Below, piece by piece: positions 1 through 40,464 of a stretch of DNA of 48,876 nt. This DNA comes from Nephila pilipes (Eukaryota), in NCBI GenBank assembly GCA_019974015.1, contig BMAW01057368.1, forward strand, positions 103,751 to 152,626, given 5' to 3'. The first letter of the stretch is position 1. The number at the start of each line of letters is the position of its first letter. The position numbers and the translations under genes were made by a program. Under the pieces are notes generated by a model. The model did not search any database. It saw only the letters and a program-made list of their open reading frames with translations, and was not told where the DNA came from.

Positions 1-86
1 TTGTGCTTCGTTCATATATGATAATGGTTACTAAACAATTTTATATATTTATTTATTTAAATACTGAAAAATTACAGTTTACATAC

Positions 87-282
87 CACATGAACTATTT
101 CTCCAGGATACAAAGGAAAAGGGTCCTGCTCTAATCTCACTTCTAAGTCAGCATGTTTTAACTTGATTTGACCAACACTGTCATAAACTACAGCATTTTC
201 AGCATTTCTGAGCACAGGATTACGAATGATGCAATAATGATACGGAGGAATAATGATCATATCTTGAGGTTTATAAATAACC
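87..282 (-). CDS. MVP: MVP exon in inverted orientation, MVP repeat 1-2 region. Translates G|[65 protein letters not shown].
   Basis: Minus-strand ORF 72..317 aligns to human MVP ...[66 protein letters not shown]. The acceptor is tttgtag|G (AG at 284-283) and the donor is GTATGT at 86-81. It ends in phase 0, which would join the phase-0 + strand exon at 2801 (VVTPL...) exactly, but it is on the opposite strand. Confidence 0.8.
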
Positions 283-682
283 CTACAAATAAATTTACAA
301 AAATTTAATGCAAACATCTCTATAAATAATAAATTTTAAAATATTTTATTCAGCGAAATAATATACAAAGGACAGGAACACAAAGTCAGATAGCTCAACA
401 TAGTTTGGGTTTATAAAAATGCAATAAAAGTTTAAAAGTACAGTAATACAGAGAAAACCAATTTATTTATATGCTTATAAATGCATGTGTTTTGAAACTC
501 AATTGAGTGCTCAGAGTTGTAAATAAAATAAAACATTAAATTATTTTTTCAAGAAAACTCACATTCTTTAACATGAAAATTTTACATTAATTTTTAATAT
601 GAAGGAAAAGATTTTATTGCAGCAATATTTAAGACTACCTTAAAGTTTAATCCATCAGAAATCAATACTTCACTATCCATTC

Positions 683-690
<8 letters not shown>

Positions 691-728
<38 letters not shown>
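691..728. repeat. (AT)n microsatellite
   Basis: Uninterrupted atatat... run. Confidence 0.95.
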
Positions 729-730
<2 letters not shown>

Positions 731-2800
731 TAAAACCATACATGCTATCATATACAATAATAACACACACATACAGCCAGAACATAATCATGCATGCACC
801 ATCATAGTATATGAGATGGTGTCTGCTGCTACACAGCAGCCGAGCTTTCAATGCAGATTAGATGGTTGGAATCTGAAAGCATTTTTTTCCATTTTTTAAA
901 CAAACTACAAAACGACTTTACTCCAACCTCGATAACTCAGCTGTTTCTGGTCCGATCGACTTAAAATTTTGACACGTTTCAAGCAAAGGTTAGTACTCTA
1001 GAAAGACCTGGTTACTGGTTTACTACGAGCGCCATCTCTGGGTTAGTCTCGGGAGTTATTGGTTGATGTGTTATATATATATAATTTATCAATTGAAGAG
1101 TAAAAGTATTATTTTTAAAAATTAACACTCTTAATTTGGCATGTGTAAAAACTATCTAGAAATTTTGATTTGTATCACTGTAAAAGTTATTTTTGATTCA
1201 TTTTTGCTATTCAAATTTATTTTTCAAATGTTATTTAAAATTCTCTAATAAAAGAGGACTATTGCAGAAACTAACCAAATTATATTTTTTAAAAAAAATG
1301 TTTGATCTTTCTGAAAAAAAGTATTTTATAATCAATTGCTTTGTATTTAATTATATTGTGTATTAAATTTTATGAAAATTATAAAAAGCTGTGCTGAAGT
1401 TTTTATTTATATGCATTCTGATTTATGAAAATTTTCAAGTAACAATTATTGACAATTTTCTTGATATTAAAGAAGCTCTTACATTTTTCTCGGAAATGTA
1501 TTTGAAATTTTTTCTTCTCATATTTGAAAATATTAGGAATACTGTTTCTTTTTCAAGGATGGCTTAAAAAGTGCCTATGCTAGAAATGAGATAACTTGCT
1601 ATAGTATTGTCCATTATTATTTTCAAGTTTTATTAGAAGTCCATGGGTACAACAGCTTTTAAATCCCGAAAAATTGTTTAACTTTTCCGACCAATGAAAC
1701 CATCTTTATTTCCCTTGAGTGCAAGCCTTTGTTTCAATTTTTACTTTGTTTTGGTTTGTAAGGATGAATTCGGGTCTCATTGACAATGACAATTCTATGC
1801 AAAATGACAACAATGGAAGCTATCAAAATTAATGAACAAATCTGTCAAATTTATTTTGGCTCTGTGTAACGGAGGGGCGAGCTTATAATGATAAAACTAA
1901 CTTGTTTTAACGACCCTATCTGTCAGCAAAAACTGGAACTTTTTGTACAAACCTTGTATATACTGTATCCTCATAATATACTTATCAGGAAATTTTGAAC
2001 TGTTTAGTATATAATCATTAGAATCTTTTATGTATTTTAATTTTTTCTCAGTCAGCTATAAAATAGATTTTTGGAAGTGTCTTTCCTTTTTAATTTGCCA
2101 AAAAATGTTTTCTTTGTTTTATAAAACTTTTCAAAATAACAATTTGTTTAAAGTTTTTTCTCTTCATTAAAATTTCTTCCCATTTTACTTTTCTTCCTCC
2201 TATTGGAAATGTATAGAATTAAATTATGCTTAAAATAAAATTTTAAAAATTACTTAGCAAAATACCTTTTTTTTTTTCAAATACTTAAAAATATATTTGA
2301 ATAAATTTTAGTTTTTAATCTTATAAATGTATATTATATATGATCTTGAACAACTAAAATATGATCAAAATTTACGGGTGCTTGTTATACGCTGGATGTA
2401 AAAGCGATAGATTTGAAAATAAGGAAAAGATGAGTGTAAAAATTTAGATTTCTATATGTATCTAAATGCTGTAATGATGTAATTTGAAATTGCGTGTGTG
2501 CATATCATACACCATGATATATAGTATAAGATTTCTAAAAATGCTTGATTTTTCTGATGAGTTCGGAGTATTAAATACTGAAATATTTGTTTTTATTAAG
2601 TACTATAATCATTAAAAATATTAAATATTTCTTTAAAAGAATTAAATATACTGAAAATATGTAAAAAGATCTCTAGATGTGTTGTTTTAAATTTTTAAAG
2701 ATGTAAGACTTTGGCTAATTTGAAAATTTATTTGCTCATGAATATACGAATTTGTTTTATCTGAATATTGTTTAAGTTCTAAAATTTAATATCATTCCAG

Positions 2801-2921
2801 GTAGTGACTCCATTAACAGTAGTGCCGTCAAATACTGCCTTGAGACTTAAAGCAATTCGAGATTTTGAAGATGATGCTATTAAGAGAATTGCGGGTGATG
2901 AATGGTTGTTTGAAGGACCAG
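2801..2921 (+). CDS. MVP: MVP exon [41 protein letters not shown]
   Basis: Acceptor AG at 2799-2800 and donor GTATAC at 2922. Matches human [45 protein letters not shown]. Confidence 0.85.
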
Positions 2922-3691: not shown

Positions 3692-3918
3692 GTACTTTTA
3701 TTCCACGAAAAGAAGTAGAAGTATTAGAAACTATTTCAGCTATTGTGATTAATCCAAATCAAGCCCTTAAACTAAGAGCTACTGCTGAAACTGTAGATAG
3801 AGATGGAAAAGAAAGAGTAACTGGAGAAGAATGGATAGTGAAGAAAACAGGAGCTTATTTACCTGGAGCTTATGAAGAAATAGTTGATGTAGTTAATGCC
3901 TATGTTTTAACGGATAAA
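3692..3918 (+). CDS. MVP: MVP exon (G)[75 protein letters not shown]
   Basis: Acceptor AG at 3690-3691 and donor GTAAGT at 3919. Near-identical motif order to human [52 protein letters not shown]...ILTEK. In frame with ORF 3745..3951. Confidence 0.9.
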
Positions 3919-8800: not shown

Positions 8801-11208
8801 CAGATTTTTGGCAAAATCGAGATAGATGAAAAAAACTGAAACATTTATTGCATTGACAGGGTTTGTCTGAAATTTTGAATACAATGGTTGATAAATCAAA
8901 AGTTAAATATATTCTGGTAGACTCATACCAAGAATTTTAATAAAAACAGGATAAACCTTTTGATTGCTGCTGAATTTTATGAATAGATACATTTCAATTA
9001 TCTCATTATTGTTAGTTATCTGTAATTCAGATGCCAAATCTACCATAGGTAAATTTGTTAGTATTGCATGAAGAAATTGGATACGATTCCTTTCCATATA
9101 ATATTGGCTGTTACTAGTGCATTCAAAACTTATTTAAAATGTTTACACATAGAGGATACAATAATTTAGAGATGCTTGATTACTGTTTAACTACATGCAT
9201 TTATTTTTTAGATGGTTTATAATATTTATAATATTAGAATAAAATATTTGGGCCTTTATATTTAATTTGTTGGAATCAAACAATGTAATGATGCATAATG
9301 ATTATGATAAAAAAATCTGTTTTGAAGTGCAAAGTAAATTTAATCTAAATTTAAAGATGTAATAATTGTTAACAGTTTAAAAATGTATTATTTTAGAGCA
9401 GAAAACATTTTTAAATTTGTTTACCAGTGTACAGAAGCAAGTACAGAGAGTCTTAGATGAGTGAACTACTCAACTACACAAATAAATGAGAATAAGATAA
9501 AAGATATATGGTACAATTTTTTAAATATTTTTATAAAAATACTGTTGAAGTATAATTTGACCTACTTAGATGTTGAGAATTCCCAAATTAAGGGCACATG
9601 TGAAATTGTTTGTGTAGATATCATGGGATTTTGACTAAGAATTGAGTAATAATTAGGATATTGAAATATTTAATCTTATTATGTATAACAGAAATTTTCT
9701 GTGAATGGGGACTCAAATAAGATAAACTGTTTTGTTTTTTCAGTATCTTATGCTATGTGATTAGGTGTAAAGGTTTCCTTCAATGCCACGGAATATTACT
9801 GAAATAATTCAAAATTTCTCTGACAGTTTTTTTCATCAATTTTCTGTATTGAGTACATTTTGTATCTTATCAGTTCATGTATAGAAATTGTTGGATTTAA
9901 CACTATAGCTAAAAGTTTGAAATTGATTTCTTTTATTAGATTAGTAATTTATAAAATAAAAAATTGCTTTATGGAATGATGTTCGAAACATAAATTACAC
10001 TGAATGACTTGTACATTCTATGGTCAAATATTTCACTTGTTTATTTAGACATTGTAAAGGTATTGTCATATTAAAATGAAGCCAATATGTATTATTAATA
10101 TTGGTAAATATAAGGGTACATAGAGGATTTTTTTTTCTTCAAATTATATGTAAGTAATGTAATTAACTGCTACAACATTTTCTAGTTTTGACATTTTTGA
10201 AATTACTAAGAAATGACCAGAAAAATTATTTTCATCCATTTCTAAAAATATTTTGAGCAGAAATTGATTAGATAATAATCATACTAGACGGTAAAAAAAG
10301 GAGAGAATCCTTTATAATATATGTCCTGAAAGTGCATTTAAATTGAATTCCGTGGCTATTGCAGTCTTAAATTTTTATCAAACTTCTTGATATTATCTTA
10401 GAATGGAGGAATCTCTATTCTAATGCCTTTTAATACAAATTGCACTTGTTTAAAAAGAGAAAATTAAATTATTTTTATTTTACAAATTCTCGCCATTCCT
10501 AGTAAAATGTTTCACATGGAGCTTGTGCACAGTCAATATTTGAAACTACCAAACTGATAACATTAAAAATGTTTTTAATTTTTGCCCTGGTGGTTATAAC
10601 TTGAAAAAGTACCAATACTTGGGTCTTCCAAAGATGAAACTTTTCTTTCTGTATTATGGCAAAGGATTATTTTGAGCTTCCAGAACGAAAAAAAAGTTTC
10701 TTTTGATCCTTCCATTGATGAAAATTATTATTAATTTGTCTTGTTCATCTTTTTTTAAAAATAATTTACTATACAAAAATCTTTTTGATAAATCTAGCAA
10801 CAAATATTTTACTTGCTTTTTCTTTATAAATTTATTGCTTGATTTAATTTTTTATGAGGGTATAAATATAAATAGTTAAATGTTTGCAAATATAAGGAAT
10901 TTTCAAGGGTTACAAATCACTCGGATTATATCTTGTTACCTATAGCTCTTTTAACCTGTTAGCATGTTTCTCCATTTTTAATTACGTCTTATATTGTTTC
11001 TTCAAAAAGAAAACTATGTGATAAAGGCGATTTCAATATTTTGTTAAATTGTGATAATTCAGTTTGCTATTTCCAATTAAATAAATATTTTTAATAAATA
11101 GGTTGTAAAAAATGCTAAAAAGCGGTCAATAACAGATGCATTAATTGATGTAAAATAAATCCCTTTAAATGCTACTGTTTCTAATACACACTTACACATT
11201 TTTTAAAG

Positions 11209-11445
11209 GAGGCTGTTCATGTCAAGGCAAAGAAGACTTTTGTAGATGAATTTGGAAAAACAAGAAAAAATGGAGAAGAATGGCTAATAACATTAGCAGA
11301 TACTGAAACTTACATTCCTGGTGTTTATGAAGATGTAGTAGGAATTGTAAAAATTACAACACTTTCTAATCGTCAATATTGTGTTATTCTGGATCCTTTA
11401 GGCACAGATGGTAAACCTCAGTTGGGAAGGAAAAAACTTTTGAAG
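11209..11445 (+). CDS. MVP: MVP exon [79 protein letters not shown]
   Basis: Acceptor AG at 11207-11208 and donor GTTTGT at 11446. Matches human [80 protein letters not shown]. Confidence 0.9.
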
Positions 11446-12455: not shown

Positions 12456-12587
12456 GGTGAAAAATCATTTTTCTTAAAACCTGGAGAAAAACTAGAAGCT
12501 GGTATTCAGGATGTTCATGTTTTAAGTGAAAATGAAGGTCTTATATTAAGAGCAAGGGAGGCATTTCTAGATAATAGTGAAACTCCT
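12456..12587 (+). CDS. MVP: MVP exon [44 protein letters not shown]
   Basis: Acceptor AG at 12454-12455 and donor GTAAGT at 12588. Matches human [44 protein letters not shown]. Confidence 0.9.
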
Positions 12588-13299: not shown

Positions 13300-14340
13300 A
13301 ATGCTTACAGAAACTGTAACCATTTCTGTTTCCCCCACGGGCCAGGGGGTGGGAAGTGCAATTTTGGTCTCTTATAAATAATTTAATATCAGTGAAGGAT
13401 TGAATTACTATGGAGAAAAATTCTATGCTGTTTTTAATGGTTGAAGCCATTTAGTTGTTTTGTACGCAAAATTTTGTTTATTATTTGTGTCGGTAAATAT
13501 GGTCTGCGCTCTGATTAAGGGATTTGCTTGCTTTTTGATAGAGAGAAAAGTGTTTCTAGATAGTTTAGTGATTAAACGATCAATATTTTCTATTTGAAGG
13601 TCATTATGTATGACCGAATTTCTAACGTACCATGGAGCGTTGGTGATTATTCTAAGAATTAAGTTTTGTAAGGTTTGGATGTGTTTGAGGTGGGTCGGGG
13701 CTGCGTGCCCCCAAACAGGGAGGCATAGGTAATAACTGGGCTTAAAATCTACTTGAAGAGAAGAACTTTATTTTTGAGTGAAAGTGGAGAATGTCTGCCA
13801 ATTAAAGAGATGCAAAGGTGAATTTTATTCCAAAACTTGTCTTTTAAATATTTGATGTGCTTTGCATATGTTAATTTCTGATCAAGGTGCAGACCCAGAT
13901 ATTTGACCACCATTACCCAGTTGATAATTTCATCAAAGAGATTTAGGTTGCTTGTAGGGTTTTGTCTTCCTTTATGGAAGAAAATTGCTTGCGATTTTTC
14001 GACGTTTATTTCGATTCTCCAATGAGTTAGCCAATTCTCTAGGATGTCAAGATAATTTTGCATTGTTTTTAAGGTGATTTTGATGTTGTAGTCCTGGGCC
14101 AACGCCGTGGAGTCATCTGCAAAGAGGCAAGTAGTAACAGTGGTATGGTGTGGAAAGTCATGCATGTACAAATGGGGCGAGAGGACCCCACCCTGGGGCG
14201 TTCCCGCTTGAATTTCTCCAGGGCTGGAGTGTGAATGATTAATTCTGGCTTTAAAAGATCTATTTTTTAGGAAGTTGTTAATAAGAAAAATGATATAGTT
14301 GGGGAATTTAAGTTTAATTTGTAGGTGAGGGCGTCATGCC
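13300..14340 (-). mobile_element. 5'-truncated jockey/CR1-like LINE fragment (RT C-terminal part) inside an MVP intron
   Basis: ORF 13749..14171 (-) reads ...LFADDSTALAQ...WLTHWRIEINVEKSQAIFFHKGRQ...VKYLGLHLDQKLTYAKHIKYL.... This is the FADD RT motif C plus the conserved KYLG(V)xLD downstream block of jockey-like LINE RTs. The flanks are locally GC-rich relative to the AT-rich intron. Confidence 0.6.
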
Positions 14341-14568
14341 ACATTTTACCAAAGGCTCTTCTTACTAAAACAAATAAAAGATTTTAATTTAGTACAAAAT
14401 ATATTTCTATAAGATAGGAATATTGACTTTTAATTTTTCACCATATTTTATCTGTTTATTCTGTTTTCTTAAAATTGGAATGAAAAAAAATTCTATGTGA
14501 ACTTCATTATTTATAATTTTTAAGCTTTTTATTTACAATTATTAAATAGCATTTATATTTATTTCCAG

Positions 14569-14718
14569 CCTATTAACCGTAATCCTGGAGATCGTTGGAT
14601 GATTAAAGGCTCTACTGAATACATTCCACCAACTGAAGTAGAAATTATCACTAAACGATATGCTATTGCTCTAGATGAAAATGAAGGAATATATGTTAGA
14701 AATATTAAATCTGGACAA
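14569..14718 (+). CDS. MVP: MVP exon [50 protein letters not shown]
   Basis: Acceptor AG at 14567-14568 and donor GTGAGT at 14719. Matches human [45 protein letters not shown]. Partly covered by ORF 14599..14787. Confidence 0.9.
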
Positions 14719-15442: not shown

Positions 15443-15705
15443 GTTCGTCTTATTTCTGGTTCTACCTACATGCTTAATCAAGATGAAGAATTGTGGATCA
15501 AGGAATTGCCACCCCAAGTACAAGAACTTCTAAACATGGGTCATGACCCTTTAAGTGATAGAGGTTCTTGGAGATTAAAGGCAGATACTGCTCATTTCAA
15601 ACAAAAAGCTTCAAAATCTGAAGAGGAAGGAGCTAGAGCAATTACTCTAAGAGTTCCACACAATGCAGCTGTCCAAATATATGATTATAAGCAAAAGAAA
15701 TCAAG
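15443..15705 (+). CDS. MVP: MVP exon [87 protein letters not shown](R)
   Basis: Acceptor AG at 15441-15442 and donor GTAAAA at 15706. The split AG| codon is completed by A at 16267. Matches human [42 protein letters not shown]...[23 protein letters not shown]. Covered by ORF 15425..15709. Confidence 0.9.
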
Positions 15706-16266
15706 GTAAAAAATTTTGAAAATGATTTTGTATATTTTTTGAACTTCTAGTATATATTTGCCATTGCCAAAACTATTATTTTTTTTTTAATGCTGGAAGG
15801 CATGAGTGGGCTTTTTGTTATTCATATTGGATGACATTCTTTAATTTTTATAGTAAAATATCATTCAAAAAATTCTGTGATATATTAAAAAAATGAATTT
15901 TCTAAAATTCATATTTCATAATGTTTATTATAATTCTAATAATGCTTATTGATTTCTGATAAGCTTGAATATGAGGAAACTGAAGTAATCTATTCATGGC
16001 AAAATTATATATGCTTAGAAGAATTCCAAGAAGGTTGGTTTTATAATATATAGCAAAAAGACTACCAGACAATATTGTTTTGTTTTTGGATAAATTGTTA
16101 TAATTTCAATTTAATTATTCATTTTTGTACAGCTGGTATTGAATATTTCTATAATATATATGCTTAGTATTTTAAGTTTATTTTTTAAAAATTTTAATTG
16201 ATTTTGATTATGTATAATTCAGTATCTTGTCATTTTAATTCATACAAAGTTTTTCATTAATTTTAG

Positions 16267-16464
16267 AGTTTTATTTGGTCCAGATCTTGTTATGTTAGCA
16301 CCCGATGAACAATTTACACAACTTAGCCTATCTGGTGATAAACCAAAGAGACCAAATGTTATTAAAACTCTATGTTTGCTTTTGGGGCCTGATTTTTGCA
16401 CGGATATCATCACTGTTGAAACTGCTGACCATGCCAGACTTTCCTTGCAGCTTTCGTACAATTG
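16267..16464 (+). CDS. MVP: MVP exon (R)[65 protein letters not shown](W)
   Basis: Acceptor AG at 16265-16266 and donor GTTTGT at 16465. Matches human [67 protein letters not shown]. Covered by ORF 16292..16507. Confidence 0.9.
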
Positions 16465-17290: not shown

Positions 17291-18364
17291 CTTGTTTGAT
17301 CTTGTGAAAATAAAATATTGATCAGGAACAGTGGCATGATAGTAACAAGAAAAGCTATACTCATTATGGCTCGTGCACTGTTTGTCTGTAGATTGATCAG
17401 TTCGTTTATTTTTATTACATTTTAGCCACCTCCTGTAGATTAACATAACTCATTGCATTTCACAAAGAAAAATACAAAATTATGAGTGAGTAAGAGGAAT
17501 TTATTGTACTAGATAGGTAAAATTGCAAAAATTGATAATTTTATTACATTTAAAAATGGATATTTACTATATAATCTATTAAAACATTACATGGATTTTG
17601 AAATACCTTATTGATCACTTAAGGTATTAAATTACTTATGAAATGTTGATAATGTTCTTGTTTTAATTATAACTCTATATTATATGCTTCTTCATTTTGA
17701 TACGTGTAGTTAAATCCTATGGGATATGATGGCATTTCTCTATTTCTAGTTATCATAATAGTTATGTTTTCTTAGAAATAAATCATTGTTGTTTATTAAG
17801 GTAGCTTGTAACCAGTCTGTTTTATACTACCAGGAAAAACTTAAGCAAATTATCTGAAAATCTCTGTGGCTATTTAAAAAATACCACCTTTCCTACCATG
17901 TTACTCTATTCACTGGGGTAGGAATGTGTTATTCATATGCTTTTCTTATTCATGTAGAAAATCTGTTCTGTTATTTTTAATGTACAGTTGCCACTATCTA
18001 GTGATTTGAAGGGTCTGTTATTTTATGCAATGCAAGTAGCACTGAAGTATTTCTTGCCTCTATATTCTACAAATATATTTGTCTTTTCTAAAACATAGCA
18101 CTTGTGCATTCTCATGTCACAATACAAGATTTTAAAATGTTTGAAATATTCTTTGTTTACATAGTCATAGCACATATTTGTATTGTGAACATTGAAGACT
18201 TGACTGAGAATATAAATATAAATTTTCAAAATCTGAGGAATTATTTGAATTACCATGTATTAATTTTTTTTTTTTCCATAAGAAAAAATTCACAGCAGTT
18301 TGAATATCAATTTTAACAGTATAATATTTTTCTTAATTTTAATGTCTTTATTTCATGCTTTAAG

Positions 18365-18506
18365 GTACTTTGATGTTGGTGATAAAAGCCCTCAAGCATC
18401 TGCTAAACTATTCAGTGTTCCAGATTTTATTGGTGATCTTTGTAAAGCAGTAGCTTCTAGAATTCGTGGCTCTGTAGCTGGAACAAATTTTGATGATTTT
18501 CATAAA
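18365..18506 (+). CDS. MVP: MVP exon (W)[47 protein letters not shown]
   Basis: Acceptor AG at 18363-18364 and donor GTATGT at 18507. Matches human [48 protein letters not shown]. Covered by ORF 18300..18557. Confidence 0.9.
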
Positions 18507-18995
18507 GTATGTACTGCAAAAATATTAACCACAATTTTTAATCTTTTAAAATGTTGATGAATTTGTCGTGTTGTGATGTGTAATATTTAAAAAAAAAAAA
18601 TTAAACTTAAAAAATGATAGAAAAATATGTTGGCTACATTATTGAATAAAGTTTATTATTTAAACATTTAAGAAATAAAAAAAACTAATTGGCGACACCA
18701 CATTTTTAAAGAATGTTGGATGGCAACTGAAAAAGAAGGATGGATTTTTTTAGATGTGAAAGATAGTAAGAATTGTTCTTATAAATTTGTGTATGTATTT
18801 ATGTTGAAAAATGTCTATCCAAAATAAATGTGATGTCTACCATAAAATATCATCTTTCTTCGTATATCTGTAATACTGTACATTAAAATTAATTTGGAGA
18901 TTCCAGTGAGATATTGGTAAATTTAGGAGTGCTTATCTAATTGCTGCTTCAAGTCTCCTGAGTTACTTTGTTTAAAATAAAAAATTGGTTAAAGT

Positions 18996-19160
18996 CGGGA
19001 ATAGGGTTTCCCCTAGGCAATAGGCAACTTTTGGGAGTAATAATAAGCGTGGTGATTTAGGTCATGATAACCCCAAGCATACTCAACGCTTTAGTCATGC
19101 ATGTTTGGCAACCTATCTAGGAAGTTACCAAGTTTCATTGCCTAGCAGATACCCTATTCC
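18996..19160 (+). mobile_element. MITE-like palindromic element copy 1, terminal inverted repeats GGGAATAGGGT...ACCCTATTCC
   Basis: About 165 bp with inverted termini gggaatagggtttcccctaggcaa ... ttgcctagcagataccctattcc. Non-coding. Near-identical to the reverse complement of 44637-44781. Confidence 0.6.
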
Positions 19161-19589
19161 TGCCTTTAACTTGAATTTTAAATTTATTTGTAGTTGTCCA
19201 GCAGAAATTTACTTTTGCCAAATTTTGTATGTGTGGTAGAAATTGTTATATGATAGTGGATGCGTGTTTTACTCCAAGCACCATTTTTGGCCTATTTTCT
19301 ATGCTATTGTTCTTCTAAAGTTATAATCTGAGATTATTTAATTTCTTTTTCAAGATGTGATTTTTTTTTAGCAAATGATTTTTGCTATTTACAGAAGAAG
19401 GATTTATCTATTTTTATCTTATGATACATTAATTATATTTTATTATTTTATATGCTCCTTATATACTCTCTTTATGCAAGTCTAAGTAAGATAGTAATTG
19501 TGGACAATAATAAAAAGTATAAAAGATTAAAGTCCAGTATTGGGTGCTCTGGGATGATTGTGGGAAAAAAATTGGGGACTTTGAAGAAA

Positions 19590-19720
19590 GATTGCCAAAG
19601 TAGCTCTAAGTAAGAAGTAACTCCATGAAAACGTTGAAAATGAAAAGCTGACCAAAATTTAGGGTTACCATGACTTAAATTGCTATATTTAATTTATCAC
19701 ACCCAAAAGTTGATACAATG
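19590..19720 (-). mobile_element. Partial copy of the same MITE-like family
   Basis: ..ttgccaaagtagctctaagtaagaag...gggttaccatgacttaaattgc...cacccaaaagttgat aligns with 44660-44770 (ttgccaaagatgtgtgacttaagc...gggttaccatgacctaaatcgcc...cccaaaagtcgtc). Confidence 0.45.
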
Positions 19721-20116
19721 GGAAGAATTGTATAATATATACAATGGAAGTTGTAAACTGGCAATGTTTTTTTTAAAATTCTCGCCAATTAGGTTTAGTA
19801 TAATTATACTCTTTTGCCAAATTGATTTAACAATTCTCGCCAACTAGATAGTATAAATTTGAGTTATGGCACATTGTCGTAGATTTTATAAGGTAATTTG
19901 ATTTATGCATGGTTGTATTGTAATATATATATATATCATTGAATGTGTTTATTATTGCTTGGGTAACAAATTGGTGAATTTTTGGAGGTTATTACAATTT
20001 GTAATTTTCAAGATTAATACTATATGATGTACATTTAAGGTACTTTGAATCATTTTAATCATATTTCTATTGTATTTTATTGGTAAAAATATTTTAGAAA
20101 ATTTTCAAAAATAATT

Positions 20117-21310
20117 TTGAATAAACATGGTAAAATCCAAACAATACCTGCTTTTCAATTGATAGAAAATACTCTAATCCAATTTAAGTTCTATGGAATT
20201 TCACATAGACAAACTAAAATACAAAAAGAAGGATTTGATAAAATGTTTAAACACAAGGTAATTGAAATAGGAGATTCAGATTACACCTCACCTATGATTT
20301 TAGTTGAAGTAGTCTGGAAGAGGTTCTAGAGATTATAGAAAGTTGAATAATTTGACGAAAATGCAATTCTTCCTTTTTCCAAATATAGAATGGGTAGAAA
20401 CTGTAGCAGTTGTAAAATACATATGTTTTAAATTTTACAGAGAGCTACTAGCAAATAATATTAACGCCAAATGACCAAAGATTTAGCAACTTTTATTACA
20501 TATTATGGAACATTTAGACCTCTTCTTATGCCTTTTGGAATTAAAATATATTTTCCTTTAGTAAAAAGATGACTAAACTTCTTCACCGATGTGAATGCCT
20601 TGCATTCCCCTATTAGATGTAGCAATTTATTCAAATACATGGGAGGTATATCTTTATCACCTGAATACTGTTTTGAAGAAAATAAAGGAGACTGACTGGC
20701 TAAACTGTTAGACCCATAAATTTGCTCAAAATAGAGTTAGTACTTTGGACACATTGTAGGTCATAATATTAGAATATCTAACGAAGTGAAAGTTGCCCTG
20801 GATTTTCCAGTGCCAACTACAAAAAGTCAAGTAGGGAATACTTAATGTTAGCTGGATATTATAATCATTATATTCATATATTCTCATCTATAGTAGCATG
20901 TGTAGCAGAAACCCTGAAAAAGAAATTCGTAGCTTAGTTCATTCTTTTGTCAAATGTAAATTTAACAGATGAGTACAACTAAGCTTTTGAAGAATTATAG
21001 GAAAATTATTTTCACAAGCCCAGATCCATATCGAATTTCACCTAGGAATTTATTCTACAAACAAGCATTTCAAATTTTGATATTGCTGTAATTTTAGCTC
21101 TATATGATAAACAAATCGAAGAACATCCTGTATTGTATCTCAGTAAGAAGCTTTCTAAAACTGAGAAGAGTTATTCTACTACACAAAAAGAGAGCACAGC
21201 CATAATATTTGCTGTAAAGAAATTACAATATTATTTGGATGGGCACACTAAATTTTTTTCATCAAATACCATAATTCCTTAATTTAGCTCAAAAATATTA
21301 CAAGTTTGTT
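20117..21310 (+). mobile_element. Degenerate Ty3/gypsy- or BEL-like LTR retrotransposon pol fragment (RT plus RNase H), multiple frameshifts and stops
   Basis: ORF 20117..20329 reads ...KEGFDKMFKHKVIEIGDSDYTSPMILV, the RT N-terminus (xGxIxPSxSPWxSPxxLV). Downstream frames give DENAILPFSKYRMG...TAFITYYGTFRPLLMPFGIKI (RT motif MPFGLxNAP), LDFPVPTTKSQV (WPxPxxxxxV) and PVLYLSKKLSKTEKSYSTTQKESTAIIFAVKKLQYYLDGHTKFF (RNase H). Confidence 0.55.
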
Positions 21311-21480
21311 TCTGCTACTTTGAGATTGGCACTAGCATTACAGTCTTATAATTATATGGTAGTAAAAATGCAGATGCTTTAAGTTGCACTCCTTGGCCTT
21401 AGTGAAATTTTATTAGAATAGACATTAAACTTATTTAGTTCATATTATTCTGCTTATTATGTTATTTGTAGTATTTCAGA

Positions 21481-21575
21481 TTACCTATGAAATTGTGCTA
21501 TATAAAAATTACATTTAAGCTATTACATAAAAATTACATTTAAGCTATTACATAAAAAATACATTAAGCTATTAC
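21481..21575. repeat. Minisatellite, about 25-bp unit (aaaaattacatttaagctattacat), 3 copies
   Basis: The direct tandem repeat is visible in the sequence. Confidence 0.8.
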
Positions 21576-22248
21576 ATTTCTTAAAAAGTTGTGTATAAAG
21601 TATTGGTATCATCGCTAAAATAATTGCTCATTGATTCAATATTAATTAAATGAATCTATTATGTTTAATGGTGATAACATTTTCAACGATTAAAAATTTA
21701 TCTTATGGTGAAAAAATTGCCTTGTGTAATCACAATTCATTTTCAGTTAACAATTCAAGTCACAAAAAGTAAAAAAGCTCAAATCTCTTACTTAGTCTTG
21801 AAAATAACTGAAAGAAGTAATATATGTTTTTATATTTTTACCCATGTAAATTAGAAATAAATTTCAATAAGATTTGTTTTTAGTATCAACCAAAACTTAT
21901 GCACTTGTTTTTGTAAATTTTTGAAAATATTAAGAATCAAAATTATTAAATATTAATATATGATTTTGTTCAAAAAATATATAAACAAAGTACAAATAAC
22001 ACCTGTAAAAAAAACAAGTTTTTTGAATGTGGGTTTTCATTCAAACTTCACACTTTGCATAATGTAATTTTTTCATACTTAAATTTTAAGAGCAAAAGGG
22101 AACATTGAGTCAAATTAAATTTACTCAATAATTAGTTTTAATAATATATTTTATTATTTGGCATTTATTAAATTTATGATCTAAAATAAATATGTGTAAA
22201 ATTTTTTAGCTCGATTAATCATTGTGGTTTGATGACTTGGCATAAAAT

Positions 22249-22335: not shown

Positions 22336-25300
22336 TTGACAATTTTTACTAATTATAATTAAATTATTGTATTGTAATCCAAAATAATCGTGAAGAGAAA
22401 AATTCAGCTCAATTGAGCACATTAAAATGTGAGAAAAATAATTGAAGCAGAAAAATAATTGAAAAAAGAAAAATTCTTTTAAAATGATCAAATTTGATAC
22501 GAAGCTTCTTAATACTACCACTAGATTAGAGTTGTGGTAATTTTCTTGTGTGTGGGGGGAGTGAAAATCAAATCCAACTTGGAGGATAACAACAAATGAC
22601 ACTTCATTCGTAAGTCTTCAGTACAACACAAATTGGACAATAACAGTACAACAAATACACAGCACTAGCACAGTTTAGTGATACAGAAACAGGAAGGAAA
22701 CACACGTTTATTACGGTATAACAGCAATGTTCAGCTTAGTAGTCCTCACTGGAGACCACCTCTGCAGTAATATTCTGCACTTCCAGGGCAGATTCTGTTC
22801 ATTCCCTCAGATACATGTTGTACCTTTGCAAATTCATCTGGCATGCTCCACTTCAAGTGCCAACAACTTTCAGTCGATTCCTGACAGATTTCCACGACAG
22901 ATACTCCAAAGACTAGACTCTGACAGTTCCACTAAATTTAGGCCAAACCTCAAGCAAGATTCACTTGTTCATGATTCTTTGATCGGTCTATAAAGCAGGT
23001 TCCACCGTCAAACTGATTTGGACAAAGATCGATTCCCTGCCTCTCAGACTCAGCTTATTTATATCTCCTGACGTCACATAAGAAAATTGGAGAAAAGTCT
23101 GCAACTTTCTTCCTTATCTGTATTTTGTCCAAGTTCCAGCACCTTCGAGTATTTTCCATTGGTTGCCTAAGTTGCAAAATCCGTCACTAAGGTGAAGGGG
23201 TCATTGCTGTTGACATCACTGTAAATCCATCTTTTCCTTTATTAAAGAAGCGTTACAGAGAAGCATCAACTAATGTGAGGGTCTTCATGTCAGGAGAATT
23301 CTTTCCAGCTGTAGCATTCTTCATTACAATAGGTAAAAGATCTCAAACATAAATCTGCATTAACATATCTTCTTGGCCAAATCTCATTTTCTGTTGTGTG
23401 ATGGCTTTGGGATAATTTTCAGTTCTTATTGGAAAACTTAAAATCAATCTTGCAGCTCTGGAATTAGGTGCCATAGATTGGTATAAGTATTGGAATTTGT
23501 CAATTTTGGGTAAATCATCCAATTTATGAATTTTAGAATAAAATACCCCAAACAGTGAGAAATTCTTTAGGATTACCTTAAAATTTCTTTAATTTAATTT
23601 CAATACGTTCAACTTCTCAGCATTATTCTTTGAAGAACATTCTGGATTAGCTTTGAAATTCCTTTTAAAAAAAGTTCTAATTTGGCATTTAAGTTTCCAA
23701 CAATTATCTGTATAATTATTGGCCTCTTCAAAGTCCTCCAAAACTAAAATATTCATTAACAGCTTGAATATTTTCCAAAAGTAATGAAGATATTTCATAG
23801 AGTCTTTTAAAGGAGAAAATTTATCTCCCAATTGCATACTTAATGAATGCAGCTTGTCAATATCTTTGGCATCAATGTCAAGTATCGCCAAATGTTGAGC
23901 CAAATTCTTTGATGTGGTCATAAATGAAATTTTTAAAGACTTACTTTTCATCTTAAGAGTATCCATATCTTCAATTACAACTCAATTAAAATGTAGCGAC
24001 TATTTTATAGCACTCTTCAAATCGGTGTCTTGTTGCAGATGTTCAAATATTGAAACATTTTACTCAACAATTGACAAATTCAATTAGCAAGAACCTTTAA
24101 ATCTAACAAATTTTTCTCCAATCTAATGAATTACTCAAATCAGTGAAATAGCTAAAATCAATGAATTGGCAATTGTATTTAAAGATAACATTTAATATTA
24201 TTATGTCACATCTGTGAACAAAGTTTCAAAGGACACAGTATTGTAAGATATCACATTAGCTCGTATATGTTTCATCACATCACATTTTCATCACTTCAAA
24301 TTATTCTTTTCTTCATAGCTTCTTCACAAAATCCAACAGGAATTAAATACAAAAAATAAGAGAATTATGCCATTTTATAATTTTAAAAATTAATTTGGTA
24401 TTCAGCTTTTAAGTATGAAGGAATTTTAATTATTTTGAAAATTTAAAAGCACATATTAATTAATTTAATATTCTTAAGAATAAAATTATATATGTGCCTA
24501 CAGATATTTATGCTTAATTTACTGTAAAGAAAGGAACTATATTAACTGTGAAAAAGCTGTGTCTCTCGTCAAAAATATTACTAATAACCCTATTTATTAT
24601 TTACAACTTTTAAATAAGATAATGAAATGATACATCTGGTTTAAATTCTGGGTTAAATTTATTTTGAAAATATATGAATTTATCTATATATCTAAACAAA
24701 GTGAATTTATTGTTGTCTATCAAATTTTGTTCTCAAAAATATTAGTTAATGTTGGCAAGATTATATCCAGCTGGTGTTCTTTTAATTTGTATTTTTTTTA
24801 CTATAAAAATATTTTCTTTTAAAACAAGATTAATAAGATTTTTAAATTTCTCATAAGATCTAGAACTATTAATTTTGTTAAACTTAAAACAGAAGAACAT
24901 TATAATTAAATATTTTATATGTATTGAATTAAGCAAATCTTTAAAATTGTGACTATAAATTAAAGTATCTTTATCATTTACATAGCCAATAATTTCTGAA
25001 CTATTTTTAATAAGTCATCAAAGCAATCTTTTTTTTTTTTTTTTTTTTTGTAAAATATTTTGTAAGATTTTACTTGCTTTAGTAGTGATAGTATTAAAAC
25101 CACTAGTCACATTTCTAAATTTAATAGGTTCTGTACAAAATATATGAATTATGAAGATGTGTGGAAATTTCATAGTATAACCTTTTATTTAAATTGGTAA
25201 TTTTTCTATGATTATTAGGAACTTTAATAAAAGTTTTATTAGTCATATTAACATAGTATGTTTTGTAAATAAAAGGAAATTTACTTTTGACATCATCAAA

Positions 25301-26838: not shown

Positions 26839-27050
26839 AATTCTGCCAAGATTATACGCACAGCTGTTTTTGGCTTAGATGACAACAAAAAAGTTAGAAA
26901 AACTTTTAATTTCCCTCAAAATAATCTAAATATTACTAGTGTAGATATTCAGAGTGTTGAACCTGTAGATCAACGAACCAGAGATTCTTTACAAAAATCT
27001 GTTCAACTTGCTATTGAAATTACTACTCAAAGTCAAGAGGCCACAGCTAG
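26839..27050 (+). CDS. MVP: MVP exon [70 protein letters not shown](R)
   Basis: Acceptor AG at 26837-26838 and donor GTAATT at 27051. Matches human [13 protein letters not shown]...[41 protein letters not shown]. Confidence 0.9.
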
Positions 27051-29062: not shown

Positions 29063-29306
29063 ACATGAAGCAGAGAGGAGGGAACAAGAAGCACGTGGTC
29101 GTCTGGAACGACAACGAATATCTGATGAAGTTGAAGCAGAAAAGTCAAGAAAGAACTTGCTGGAGTTAAAAGTTAGTAGCATGTCAATTGAAAATTGTGG
29201 TCAGGCTAAAGCAGAAGCTTTGAGTCGTGCAGAAGCTCAAAGAATTGAAGCTGAAGCTGCCGTAGAGCAAGCCAGGTCAAAAGCAGAAGCTATGAAAATT
29301 GAAGCA
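29063..29306 (+). CDS. MVP: MVP exon (R)[81 protein letters not shown], start of cap-helix region
   Basis: Acceptor AG at 29061-29062 and donor GTACGT at 29307. Matches human [65 protein letters not shown].... Frame of ORF 29157..29366. Confidence 0.9.
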
Positions 29307-30303: not shown

Positions 30304-30492
30304 GAAACTGAGTTGGAACGTCTGAGCAAAGCTAGAGAGGAAGAACTGCGTTACCTTAAAGAGCAAAACAATATTGAAGTTGAAAAGCTGAGAGAAGTTG
30401 CCGATGTTGAAGTTCGGAAATTTAAAAGCATGGTTGAAAGTCTTGGAAGTGATACCATTCAGGCTGTGGCTTGTGCTGGACAAGATTTTCAG
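30304..30492 (+). CDS. MVP: MVP exon ETELERLSKAREEELRYLKEQNNIEVEKLREVADVEVRKFKSMVESLGSDTIQAVACAGQDFQ
   Basis: Acceptor AG at 30302-30303 and donor GTCTGT at 30493. Matches human [65 protein letters not shown]. Frame of ORF 30313..30534. Confidence 0.9.
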
Positions 30493-32799: not shown

Positions 32800-34900
32800 T
32801 TCAAGTACTTAACTCTTATCTTGTAATTTAAAATTATGAGAACCTTTAATCAAATAGCTTGTGTTGGTGTATAGCATGGGTGGCCTAGCTCCTTGATAGT
32901 CGGAGCCATTTCTCAAAATTTGAAATTTTTTGCGATCCGCAATTAAAAAGGTATTAAAATTTTTTTTTACAGAAATTATGTTTATTGAAAACATATAAAA
33001 AAAAGTACAAAATGTTTCTATTGAATTTAAAAATTAAACACATTTATTTTACTTATTTTGATAATTTTTTAAAATTTGGTGAATATTTGGTGACAGCACT
33101 TCTCAGTAATTCTTTCAGATACTGGGTAGATAATACTGAATGGTGTTTGGATTTCACGAATTTTAAAGGGGAATAAAATGATTCTTATAAGTACGTTGTT
33201 CAGAATATTGAAATAATTCAACAAGCAGCCTTTTTTAATTCAGAATACTTCGATTCTGGTACAAATTTCCTAAATTTAGTAATTGGCGTCAACTTATATT
33301 TTAATTGTAGAGCATGATCTTCTTGCATCTCTATTAATTCTAATTCTCCAGATGCTTTTTAGGTCATAATTATATTGGAAATGGAAAACTCACCTTGAAT
33401 TATGTTAATTTCAAATGGATTTAGAAAAAAATCAACATTTTAAATTTTCAAGAGACATTTTAAATTTTTCTAGTCTTGAAATCTATTTTGTAATTCTGTC
33501 AATATACCTTCTATCTTTTTTATATACTCATTGAGTTTTTCTTGTTTAATATTGGAACAAATTTTTATAATTTGAGGAAAATGACAAAATGTTTTATTTT
33601 TTATATCATTTTAAAAAAGTTGTAATTTAGTTTGAAAACTAAATATTCACTGTGAGAGGTCAGATATTATTTTATCTTTCCCCAGCAATTGTAAATTGAG
33701 TGTTTGCAAATGTTCCATGACATCAGTCAAAAACATTGTCTTGTTACCACTCATCATCGTCTAATTCTGAATAGGTGATTTCCTTTTCTTTTACAAATGC
33801 AGTTATCGGATCAAACAAATCTACAAATCAATTAAATTCATTGTAGCTAGGTAACCATCTAACAATGCAAAAGCAATTAATGTCATTTGGAAGTTCTTCG
33901 TCCTTTAATTCTTCAAGGAAATATTTGAATTGTTAATGATTTTTTGCATTGGTGCGAATGTAATTTACAATGTGTAACACTGTTTTCATAACATCAGGAT
34001 ATTTTAAATATTTTGTAACAAGATGCTCTCGGTGAATTATGCAGTGAATCGGTATGAATTGTGGAATTTTAGAATCATCTCTTAAAAGTCCAATAAGACT
34101 GACTTTTTTACCCAGCATTGCCGGAGCTCCATCAGTTGCAATGCTTACAAGTTTTTTAAGAGGCACATCAAAGTTTTCATTATGGAATCTAATGCATTTT
34201 TAATATCGTCGCCACAGGTTGAAGTGCTACTAATTCTAATAATTCTTCTTTGACAACGAAGTCAGATGAAACAAAAGGTATGAAAACTACCAATTGCGGA
34301 AGATCTGTGATATCTGTCAATTTGTCAAGGGCTAAGCTGAATGCAATACAGTTCTTCAAATCATTTTTTAAATTATATTCAAGAGATGTATTAATTGCAG
34401 TTATGTATTGTTCGGTTGTGTGTCTCGAGATGGGAATTTGCGAAACAACTTTCTGCAATGCTACATTATTTAGATCTAAAACTTTAAGTACATCTTCCAA
34501 GTTTTTTTTTAATAAACTCTACTTCTCCATATGGGCATTTTGCACAAGCAATATTCCTGGCAATAACAGAACTGGCTTCAGCCACATTATCTTGATTGCT
34601 AAAGGTCGTCAAAATTGATTGTTTATTTAAATTCAATTTTAAAGATGCAAGTTCATCTAATTTTAATTTGGAATGTGGTGGATACAGATTAGAAAACTGA
34701 GGATGATTGGTTTCATAATATTGACGTAAATTGCGAGCTTTATAATTTTTGACCATAGAATTACAAATAACACATAATGCTTTTCTGTTATTGTCAATAA
34801 AAAAGAAATTCTCCTTCCACTCATTATTAAAACTTATATTTTCTTGCTTGTATTTTCTTTTTTTATTTTTGTTCCCTGTCATCATATTTTTAAAGGAATT
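32800..34900 (-). pseudogene. hAT-superfamily (ZBED5/FAM200/Buster-like) transposase pseudogene, antisense in the last MVP intron
   Basis: Three consecutive minus-strand ORF pieces: 34885..34484 (FNNEWKENFFFIDNNRKALCVICNSMV, N-terminal zinc-finger region), 34500..34189 and 34166..33933 (SIATDGAPAMLGKKVSLIGLL...IPIHCIIHREHLVTKYLKYPDVMKTVLHIVNYIRTNAKNH). The last block is the characteristic hAT/ZBED5-family DDE motif. A degenerate continuation (..FLEELKDEELPNDINCFCIVRWL..) lies below 33933. It is broken by frameshifts. Confidence 0.65.
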
Positions 34901-35522: not shown

Positions 35523-35666
35523 GTTAAACTTCTCCAAGGTCTTGGAATTCAATCAGCTTTAATTACAGATGGTAAATCACCTATTAATCTTTTTAATACT
35601 GCTCAAGGCTTTCTTGGAAGTGCAATAGCTGCAAAAAGGCAGCGTCTTGACAGTGATGCATCATAA
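35523..35666 (+). CDS. MVP: MVP terminal coding exon [47 protein letters not shown], including TAA stop at 35664-35666
   Basis: Acceptor AG at 35521-35522 after a poly-T tract. Matches human [32 protein letters not shown]. The C-terminal tail is shorter than the human one. Confidence 0.85.
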
Positions 35667-38856: not shown

Positions 38857-40464
38857 ATCTAGCTCATGATCTATCTAGAATCTCCTCTCTTTGTCTGTCT
38901 GGTCTGAAAATCAAAATAAAAAATAACTTCTTTATATATCGGTACACCACGTGGGTCTGACGAACGAGGGGCAGTTCGATCCACCCACGTGACTACCACC
39001 TATGTAGGCCACGGATTCTCGACATTGATTACCTCCTTTGATACAGCAGTGTCTATGTGTGAGAGCCAAACGGCTGTATCATCTACATAGTAGGCGGATT
39101 TTGTGTCAGGCTGAATGGTGTTCATATAAATGAGAAATAAAAAGGGACTTAGGACTGATCCCTGTGGTACGCCAGCCCTCAATTTATGTAACTCAGAGAG
39201 CACTCCATTAAACCTCACAGAGAATTTTCTATCACGAAGAAAGTCGTTAATCCATATGAGCGCATTGCCCTTTATACCTGTGTTGTAACAAATGTGTACC
39301 AGTTTCTGACTCCATACACGGTCAAATGCTGTAGGAAAGTCTAGAAACACTGCCACAGTTTTACGATGAGGTTTCATCTTAAGACCATCTATTGTATGAC
39401 ATAAATAGAAGAGCTGATCTACGTTGTTGTGATGGGATCGATATGCATTTTGGTAGAAATGAAGTTTATTGTACTTGATGAGCCAGTCCATAAGTCTGTG
39501 GTAGATTACACGTTCCATTAGCTAGCAAAGTGTGCTGGTGAGTATTGGCCTAAAGTTATTGCATTGGGATGCATTTTTGCTTGGCTTTAGTAATATAGGA
39601 ATTATTATGGAGTTTTTCCAGATTTTTGGTAATTTGCCTGTAGTCAAGGAGAGGTTGAAAATTTCCAAAAGTTCCTTTTTTGCACTTAATCCAAAGTGCT
39701 GCAACATCTGGCCAAAGATTAAGTCACTACTGGGAGTTTTGAGGAGATCCATTTTGGCAATCGCAAAATCTAGCTCCTCCATTGATACTCGTTCAGTGAA
39801 AATGTCATTAATTTGGTAGTTTCTTGAGAACTTTATCGAATTTCTATGGGCATTGAGCAATTTTTTATCATTTGCATTGAAATCCGGTTTACTTTTTATT
39901 CCATAATGCTCTGCAAGCATCGATGTAGTTTCTTTGTTTGTGGCAGCACTTTTGCCAGAAAGGGAAATTGTGTTTGACTGAAGATTAACTTTCCTTAGAG
40001 TTGTTTGATTATTTAAAATTTTAATGACTTTCCAGTGCTATGAAATCCTTCTAGGGTCTAATTTTTCACAGAATTCAGCCCATTTCTTACGCTTGCAAGA
40101 GGAGATTTTCTCCTCAACTCTATGACAAATCTCGGTGAATCTCAATCTGATTGTATCAGTGTTATTTGCCATCAGAACAACACAAAGTTTGTCGTGTTCA
40201 TGAATGAGAGCATCAATATTAGCATCTTTCCAATAGGAGACCCAGTCGTCTCTTTTGATTCTAGAAATTGAGACTTTTGCTGCCGAAAGGATGCGCATGG
40301 TAAATGTTCGTATTTTATCTTCGAGCATTAAAATCACTGTAAAGTAAAATTAGTTTTTGGTTTCTGAGGAATATATATGTTGTAATTTTTTCATGTATAT
40401 CTTTTCATGTATAACTTTTTTTTTCAAATTTTTGAATCTTAAGAAAAATTCTGTTTTTTACTAT

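Follow-up and report, generated by a model that had tools for sequence, protein, structure and literature searches.

An exon on the wrong strand in the major vault protein gene of the Nephila pilipes draft genome: probably an orientation error

Can two neighbouring exons of one gene face in opposite directions in a living animal, or does such a layout reflect the way in which its genome was assembled? The question is raised by a stretch of 48,876 nucleotides from the spider Nephila pilipes (assembly GCA_019974015.1, contig BMAW01057368.1, forward-strand positions 103,751 to 152,626), referred to below as the window, in which coding exon 2 of the gene for major vault protein (MVP) is read from the minus strand and exons 3-14 are read from the plus strand. 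A previous inspection of the letters, the sequence-only reading, proposed either a recent, real inversion or a mis-orientation in the assembly, and these are the two explanations that remain live. Weighing priors and consistency with the findings described here, we consider it probable that the flipped block is an orientation error of the draft assembly and not a biological feature; the flip would then have happened during computation and not in the spider itself. Under neither explanation is a new kind of biological system involved.

One MVP gene on two strands

Exon 2 as read on the minus strand (282 to 87, 196 nt) is complete and splice-competent. Its acceptor AG at 284-283 and its GTATGT donor at 86-81 are intact on that same strand, and between them lie one base that completes a split Arg codon and then 65 codons, ending in phase 0; a sense-strand stretch inside the exon reads ATGATCATTATTCCTCCGTATCA. 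The encoded peptide matches the Pfam family Vault_2 (PF17794, E 7.8e-24). With human MVP as query, tblastn placed residues 42-105 at 284-93 on the minus strand (E 1e-21) and residues 109-850 from 2804 to 35618 on the plus strand. By these matches, exon 2 is assigned to MVP residues about 42-105, within the N-terminal vault repeats. Exon 3 (121 nt) has an AG directly before position 2801 and starts in phase 0, and the agreement of phases and the strong donor that had been pointed out in the sequence-only reading are thus borne out. If the two exons were spliced, their junction would read CCTGGAGAAATAGTTCATGTG followed directly by GTAGTGACTCCATTAACAGTAGTG. The joined peptides of exons 2 and 3 match residues 42-149 of solved MVP chains such as 4hl8/4v60 from end to end with no gap (E 1e-50 to 2e-54), and they are contiguous in the 6 spider MVPs that were retrieved. 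The earlier claim that the product of the minus-strand exon lies just N-terminal to that of exon 3 is therefore correct, with agreement far beyond what chance would give.

The arrangement in related species points the same way. In Trichonephila clavata, Trichonephila inaurata, Trichonephila clavipes, Caerostris darwini and Oedothorax gibbosus, the MVP exons found are collinear on one strand in gap-free sequence (Table 1), and an older T. clavipes scaffold (MWRG01009801.1) agrees on this order, with a 99-N gap between exons 2 and 3. Exon 1-4 boundaries and phases in the araneoid genes (T. clavata GFR31630.1, T. inaurata, C. darwini and O. gibbosus) are the same as those in N. pilipes. Over exons 3-14 the N. 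pilipes protein is 94% identical to that of T. clavata and 88% identical to that of C. darwini, and exon 2 is 89-91% identical to its counterparts in Trichonephila species. In the other araneoid genes, however, exon 2 stands between exons 1 and 3 on the same strand, whereas in N. pilipes it points the other way and the 48.9 kb of sequence contain no exon 1. The gap-free joint alignment and the collinear order in five other spiders support the proposal that exons 2 and 3 were once contiguous in one gene; we read them as adjacent pieces of a single MVP gene that lie on opposite strands in this draft. Because the exons are collinear in all five relatives, the opposite-strand layout is the derived state.

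Exon 1 had not been found between 283 and 2800 by the sequence-only reading, and its absence extends to the whole window on both strands, as judged by tblastn with human, mollusc and Trichonephila peptides, by motif search and by an nhmmer profile of Trichonephila exon 1 with its upstream region; an exon 1 of this gene would be expected to be …IFRIPPYKYMHVLDQ…-like. The profile likewise detected no promoter or upstream homology in the window on the minus strand above exon 2. A complete MVP reading frame that includes exon 1 on a single strand was accordingly not encountered here: exon 1 is absent, exon 2 is on the opposite strand, and the plus-strand model has 761 amino acids. The last codon of T. 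clavata exon 1 is cut after its second base, so that skipping of the 196-nt exon 2 shifts the frame.

Neither exon 2 nor the remaining exons show relaxed constraint or gene decay. Against three Trichonephila species, the ratio of non-synonymous to synonymous substitution rates (dN/dS) is 0.08-0.09 for exon 2 and 0.06-0.07 for exons 3-14; the differences in exon 2 amount to 8 or fewer non-synonymous and about 17 synonymous changes. All splice sites and reading frames are intact, as are 12 of the 12 downstream exons (3-14). With dN/dS unrelaxed and every exon intact, an old gene-disrupting inversion is excluded, which leaves two possibilities: the animal has no inversion at all, or it has one that is very young.

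Public annotation of N. pilipes already splits MVP into two models on opposite strands. One, GFT10432.1, is a protein of 761 amino acids that maps exactly to 13 plus-strand segments, from 2541-2567 through the stop codon at 35666, and belongs to the 90% cluster of the top match for a query of exons 3-14, which matched nephilid MVPs at 94% identity. The other, also named 'major vault protein', has 73 amino acids, lies on the minus strand of the same 1,161,162-bp scaffold and is composed of a mini-exon (785 to 775), exon 2, and a read-through of the donor to a stop at 74-72. In a search with exon 2 alone, the 73-amino-acid model was the only N. pilipes protein that contained this exon. No N. pilipes transcript or model joining exons 2 and 3 was present in that search or among the best 120 of 362 matches to a three-exon query, and the protein closest to exons 2-4 among those best 120 of 362 was a T. 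clavipes fragment. The start exon of GFT10432.1, MLDFSDEFG, has no conserved coding counterpart in T. inaurata; indels break the frame there. The mini-exon of the shorter model, ATGTTCTGGCT (MFW plus 2 bases of a Leu codon), is probably an ab initio patch by the gene predictor. As a side observation, both GenBank models open with a tiny, improvised start exon (MLDFSDEFG and MFW-), and these look like predictor patches around the flipped exon.

Extent and borders of the reversed block

How much of the locus is turned around? Judged by alignment, the part that can be called demonstrably inverted is limited to exon 2 and its short flanks. Some 0.35 kb of this can be aligned, and the whole may measure about 0.7 kb. 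The reverse-aligning block takes in exon 2, ~85 nt from the end of intron 1 and at least 66 nt from the start of intron 2. An nhmmer profile built from the Trichonephila intron 1 tail, exon 2, intron 2 and exon 3 gave a reverse match at 334 to 51 (E 1.3e-70), and a profile of the same region gave a forward match at 2356-2965 (E 1.9e-53). Two further stretches left no trace in the window by blastn or nhmmer: ~1,100 nt at the end of intron 1, which are about 75% conserved among Trichonephila species, and ~355 nt from the 5′ part of intron 2. The sequence-only reading had envisaged an inverted segment of 2.7 kb or more carrying the 5′ part of the gene. This does not hold, as only ~0.35 kb aligns in reverse and the window has no exon 1 or promoter. 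Minus-strand homology continues into the left edge of the window, and the right border is located only between 368 and ~728. The window is not of round length and has no N; its left edge, 86 nt from the exon 2 donor, could itself be a scaffold gap if windows are cut at gaps, a circumstance that would favour misassembly.

Strand composition allows the right border to be placed more closely. Between 283 and 690 the AT skew is +0.12 and the GC skew -0.10, compared with means of -0.06 and +0.07 for the plus-strand MVP introns; 2% of 136 intron windows attain this AT skew, and none attain both skews. Beyond about 800 the sign of the skew is back to normal. The stretch is probably a reversed tail of intron 1, a reading that draws on composition and not on orthology, and on the same grounds the flipped block probably ends rightward at (AT)19, the self-complementary microsatellite that sits at the composition switch and that its position makes a candidate junction.

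Between the reverse-aligning block and the orthologous 3′ part of intron 2, the sequence from 369 to 2355 has no detectable orthology to the Trichonephila MVP locus and, after the block is turned back, would most simply be N. pilipes-specific intron 2 sequence. No identifiable transposon was found in it by six-frame Pfam, Rfam and self- or cross-blastn searches, and without Pfam, Rfam or clear repeat-family identity the suggestion that a transposable element had mediated an inversion loses its footing. The two landmarks to which that suggestion was attached, the (AT)n tract at 691-728 and a GC-rich block at 780-1070 (41% GC), are both present. The GC-rich block, which we delimit as 729-1071, stands out from a background of 21-23% GC and is flanked by (AT)19 and (TA)6; its sole similarity in the compared loci is a weak, partial blastn match of 963-1071 to T. 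clavata (E 6e-4).

Intron 2 differs widely in length among relatives, at 8.2 kb in T. clavata versus about 1 kb in T. inaurata and T. clavipes. Its 5′ part gains large lineage-specific insertions, a pattern that fits the 2 kb of non-orthologous sequence in N. pilipes.

Several candidate features of this region were considered and set aside. The stretch at 1150-1500 gave weak matches (58-67%) to many places and looks like AT-rich background or an ancient repeat. Plus-strand intron 2 homology that began at 2003 in blastn was lost in multiple alignment and profile search, and is solid from 2356. At 1952-1990, a plus-strand match that could have been a leftover of exon 2 (its 3′ end) was judged to be a chance extension of a local alignment, and a 17-nt direct repeat (57-73 and 2571-2587) is short, AT-rich and partly palindromic.

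Origin of the reversed orientation

If the layout is an orientation error, a short block of a single-copy MVP gene, made up of the end of intron 1, exon 2 and the start of intron 2, would have been placed the wrong way round. The block would measure at least 0.35 kb and probably reach rightward to the (AT)19 tract at 691-728 and leftward beyond the window; turned back, it would restore a normal gene in the order intron 1, exon 2, an intron 2 of about 2.5 kb (from 369 or 729 to 2800) and exon 3. The self-complementary (AT)n tract would be the likely point at which orientation information was lost. Linked reads carry little orientation information for short segments, and (AT)n tracts are sequenced poorly by short reads. 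A flipped unit this small, with its right border at a palindromic (AT)19, would be the kind of segment that linked reads cannot orient. The N. pilipes draft was built from 10x linked reads with Supernova 2.0.0 in pseudohap2 style, and was then merged and gap-filled by PBJelly (70% minimum identity, 8.48 Gb Nanopore) and polished with Pilon (Kono et al., bioRxiv 10.1101/2021.04.22.441049). In the multi-platform comparison shown in Fig. 2b of PMC7757076, a misassembly of orientation is confined to the 10x Supernova assembly. The likeness lies in the assembler family and in a short segment inverted relative to each independent assembly of related genomes; in contrast, the N. pilipes window has no N gap at the junctions, and the comparison here is with related species only. 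Taken together, an error-prone type of assembly and unrelaxed selection on exon 2 shift the balance towards an artefact, and an intact acceptor, donor and frame combined with low dN/dS is the pattern expected of a functioning, normally spliced gene. Gene models were retained by Kono et al. only at an expression of at least 0.1 (bioRxiv 10.1101/2021.04.22.441049), and the exon-2-only model passed this filter, which weakly suggests that exon 2 is covered by cDNA reads. No chromosome-level or other assembly of N. pilipes was found in a literature search.

Certain features weigh against an orientation error. The window contains 0 runs of N and shows no visible scaffold gap at the junction. Bridging a mis-oriented contig is not something that a gap filler would normally be expected to do. 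The left junction falls beyond the window edge, and the only flanking inverted repeats within the window are low-complexity TA pairs. The continuity of the sequence across the whole region, without N, also speaks for a real and very recent micro-inversion of about 0.4-1 kb, fixed or heterozygous, that contains exon 2 only and may have involved breakage at (AT)n, an explanation that we consider less likely. Such an event would leave exon 2 antisense in MVP transcripts, with splicing of exon 1 to exon 3 causing a frameshift, and the outcome would be either a null allele or one whose MVP lacks its first ~108 residues. The still perfect exon and splice sites are what a young event would be expected to leave, (AT)19 sits at the composition switch, and the orientation is derived relative to outgroups. 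A pseudohap2 assembly writes one haplotype arbitrarily, and a heterozygous variant could be captured in this way. Mice can do without MVP and several animal lineages have lost it, which we count in favour of a real event as well. However, dN/dS is the same for exon 2 as for the other exons, and there is no damage downstream, so that the inversion could occupy a tiny fraction of the history of the lineage at most; a flip of under a kilobase that takes in one coding exon and no other, in a gene both conserved and single-copy, is improbable a priori compared with orientation errors in an assembly of this type; and the exon-2-only model passed the expression filter. Micro-inversions at palindromic AT-rich repeats share with this locus a reversed segment of sub-kb to kb size and a self-complementary (AT)n at the apparent junction. 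The N. pilipes case is unlike them in that it has one candidate junction, has no defined duplication or microhomology signature and is known from the assembly alone. In its specific form, a sub-kb flip of exon 2 at the palindromic (AT)n that has just inactivated MVP or is segregating as a null allele, we regard the proposal as unlikely.

Three further explanations fare worse. The minus-strand exon could be a young inverted duplicate lying in a long intron 2, either real or derived from a fold-back long read used in gap filling. In that case the true exon 2, on the plus strand, would lie together with exon 1 just left of the window. With only 86 nt between the exon and the window edge, nothing of that side can be seen, and intron 2 is indeed long (8.2 kb) in T. 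clavata. Nevertheless, one N. pilipes protein carries exon 2 and it is the 73-amino-acid minus-strand model; the predictor used an improvised ATG at 2541 rather than an upstream exon 2; and tblastn and nhmmer found no degraded plus-strand copy of exon 2 in the window. We consider a duplication improbable. Trans-splicing of a minus-strand exon 2 to exons 1 and 3, as a real and functional layout, would account for an acceptor, donor and frame that are perfect and under purifying selection despite their orientation, and for an exon-2 model that passed the expression filter. The mod(mdg4) gene of Drosophila offers a precedent, in which a common 5′ transcript is joined to alternative 3′ exons, each with its own transcription unit, and antiparallel exons are joined by trans-splicing. 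Both cases have exons of one protein on opposite strands with intact splice sites. In N. pilipes, by contrast, an internal, constitutive exon is reversed, and no upstream exon or promoter was found on its strand. Two events would be needed, from exon 1 (plus) to exon 2 (minus) and from exon 2 (minus) to exon 3 (plus); 5′ exon or promoter homology is lacking upstream on the minus strand in the window; the five related spiders have no such arrangement; and the conservation signal is more simply explained by an artefact. This makes trans-splicing highly improbable. Least credible of all, to the point of being negligible, is the idea, raised in the sequence-only reading, that the exon belongs to another MVP copy; this paralogue would occupy the minus strand in a head-to-head arrangement with the plus-strand gene. 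The rest of such a copy would lie unseen to the left of the window, yet its exon 1 should occur at coordinates above 282, where none was found in 48.6 kb; the plus-strand gene would then lack exons 1 and 2; and the N. pilipes MVP proteins found are only the two fragments of this locus, one of which contains exon 2. These findings contradict a second complete copy.

The consequences differ for the two live explanations. An assembly error would mean that public annotation represents one protein of ~870 amino acids by fragments of 761 and 73 amino acids, both named major vault protein, and comparative studies could mis-score N. pilipes MVP as truncated or duplicated. A real flip would mean that a loss-of-function allele of the vault shell protein had arisen very recently, in a lineage that otherwise keeps the gene strongly constrained. 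It would amount to a natural knockout of vaults in a chelicerate, observed just as it arises, and would be of modest interest for the scattered evolutionary loss of vaults.

Features of the window and of the compared loci

Table 1. Coordinates of MVP features and neighbouring elements in the N. pilipes window, and of MVP exons 1-3 in related spiders.
Locus	Feature	Position	Strand	Basis or remark
N. pilipes window	Reverse-aligning block (exon 2 with flanks)	20-368	-	blastn, 80-85% identity to Trichonephila loci
N. pilipes window	Exon 2 splice donor GTATGT	81-86	-	Read from sequence; AG acceptor at 283-284
N. pilipes window	MVP exon 2	87-282	-	tblastn, Pfam, structure-chain alignment; 100% identical to N. 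pilipes 73-amino-acid model
N. pilipes window	Probable reversed tail of intron 1	283-690	-	Strand composition, not orthology
N. pilipes window	Sequence without detectable orthology to Trichonephila MVP locus	369-2355		blastn, nhmmer
N. pilipes window	(AT)19, self-complementary microsatellite	691-728		At composition switch; candidate junction
N. pilipes window	39-41% GC block	729-1071		GC content; no Pfam, Rfam or repeat copies
N. pilipes window	Mini-exon of 73-amino-acid model	775-785	-	Model compared with window sequence
N. pilipes window	3′ part of intron 2, Trichonephila-orthologous	2356-2800	+	nhmmer, blastn
N. pilipes window	Start exon of GFT10432.1, spliced to 2801	2541-2567	+	Protein mapping
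N. pilipes window	MVP exon 3	2801-2921	+	tblastn, spliced protein mapping
N. pilipes window	MVP exons 4-14	3692-35666	+	Exact spliced mapping of 761-amino-acid model; all intact
N. pilipes window	MVP exons 4-9, singly	3692-3918, 11209-11445, 12456-12587, 14569-14718, 15443-15705, 16267-16464	+	
N. pilipes window	MVP exons 10-14, singly	18365-18506, 26839-27050, 29063-29306, 30304-30492, 35523-35666	+	Stop codon included
N. pilipes window	Reverse-transcriptase remnant	13749-14171	-	Pfam RVT_1, E 2e-7
N. pilipes window	133-amino-acid open reading frame	34484-34885	-	Spin-doc-type zinc finger, PF18658, E 3e-8
N. pilipes window	Reverse-transcriptase remnant	39000-39920	-	Pfam RVT_1, E 6e-18
T. clavata	Exon 1; exon 2; exon 3	14243-14410; 15946-16143; 24339-24461	One strand	No N
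T. inaurata	Exon 1; exon 2; exon 3	17838-18005; 23076-23273; 24234-24350	One strand	
T. clavipes	Exon 2; exon 3	9977-10174; 11179-11298	One strand	Flye/Nanopore, no N; exon 1 not within 10 kb upstream
C. darwini	Exon 1; exon 2; exon 3	From 10483; from 10809; from 12191	One strand	No N
O. gibbosus	Exon 1; exon 2; exon 3	From 3620; from 4332; from 9550	One strand	Chromosome-level, no N

Precomputed Pfam entries of close homologues of the N. pilipes protein comprise PF17794, PF01505 (Vault), PF17795, PF17796 and PF11978 (MVP_shoulder). Of the two reverse-transcriptase remnants in the window, one is within an MVP intron and the other is downstream of the gene. The open reading frame with the zinc finger lies inside the last MVP intron and is probably part of a domesticated or decaying transposon gene.

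Some peculiarities of the compared loci may also be recorded. In the Flye assembly of T. clavipes, the 10 kb preceding MVP exon 2 contain no exon 1, and annotation starts the protein inside exon 2. Homology of T. clavipes to T. clavata intron 1 stops (at T. clavata 14790) where T. inaurata has an insertion of ~3.5 kb (18431-21900), and this shared point suggests an insertion hot spot in intron 1. The protein from the older T. clavipes scaffold, in which the 99-N gap occupies 10599-10697, bears the NCBI label UNVERIFIED_CONTAM, yet it is clearly a spider MVP.

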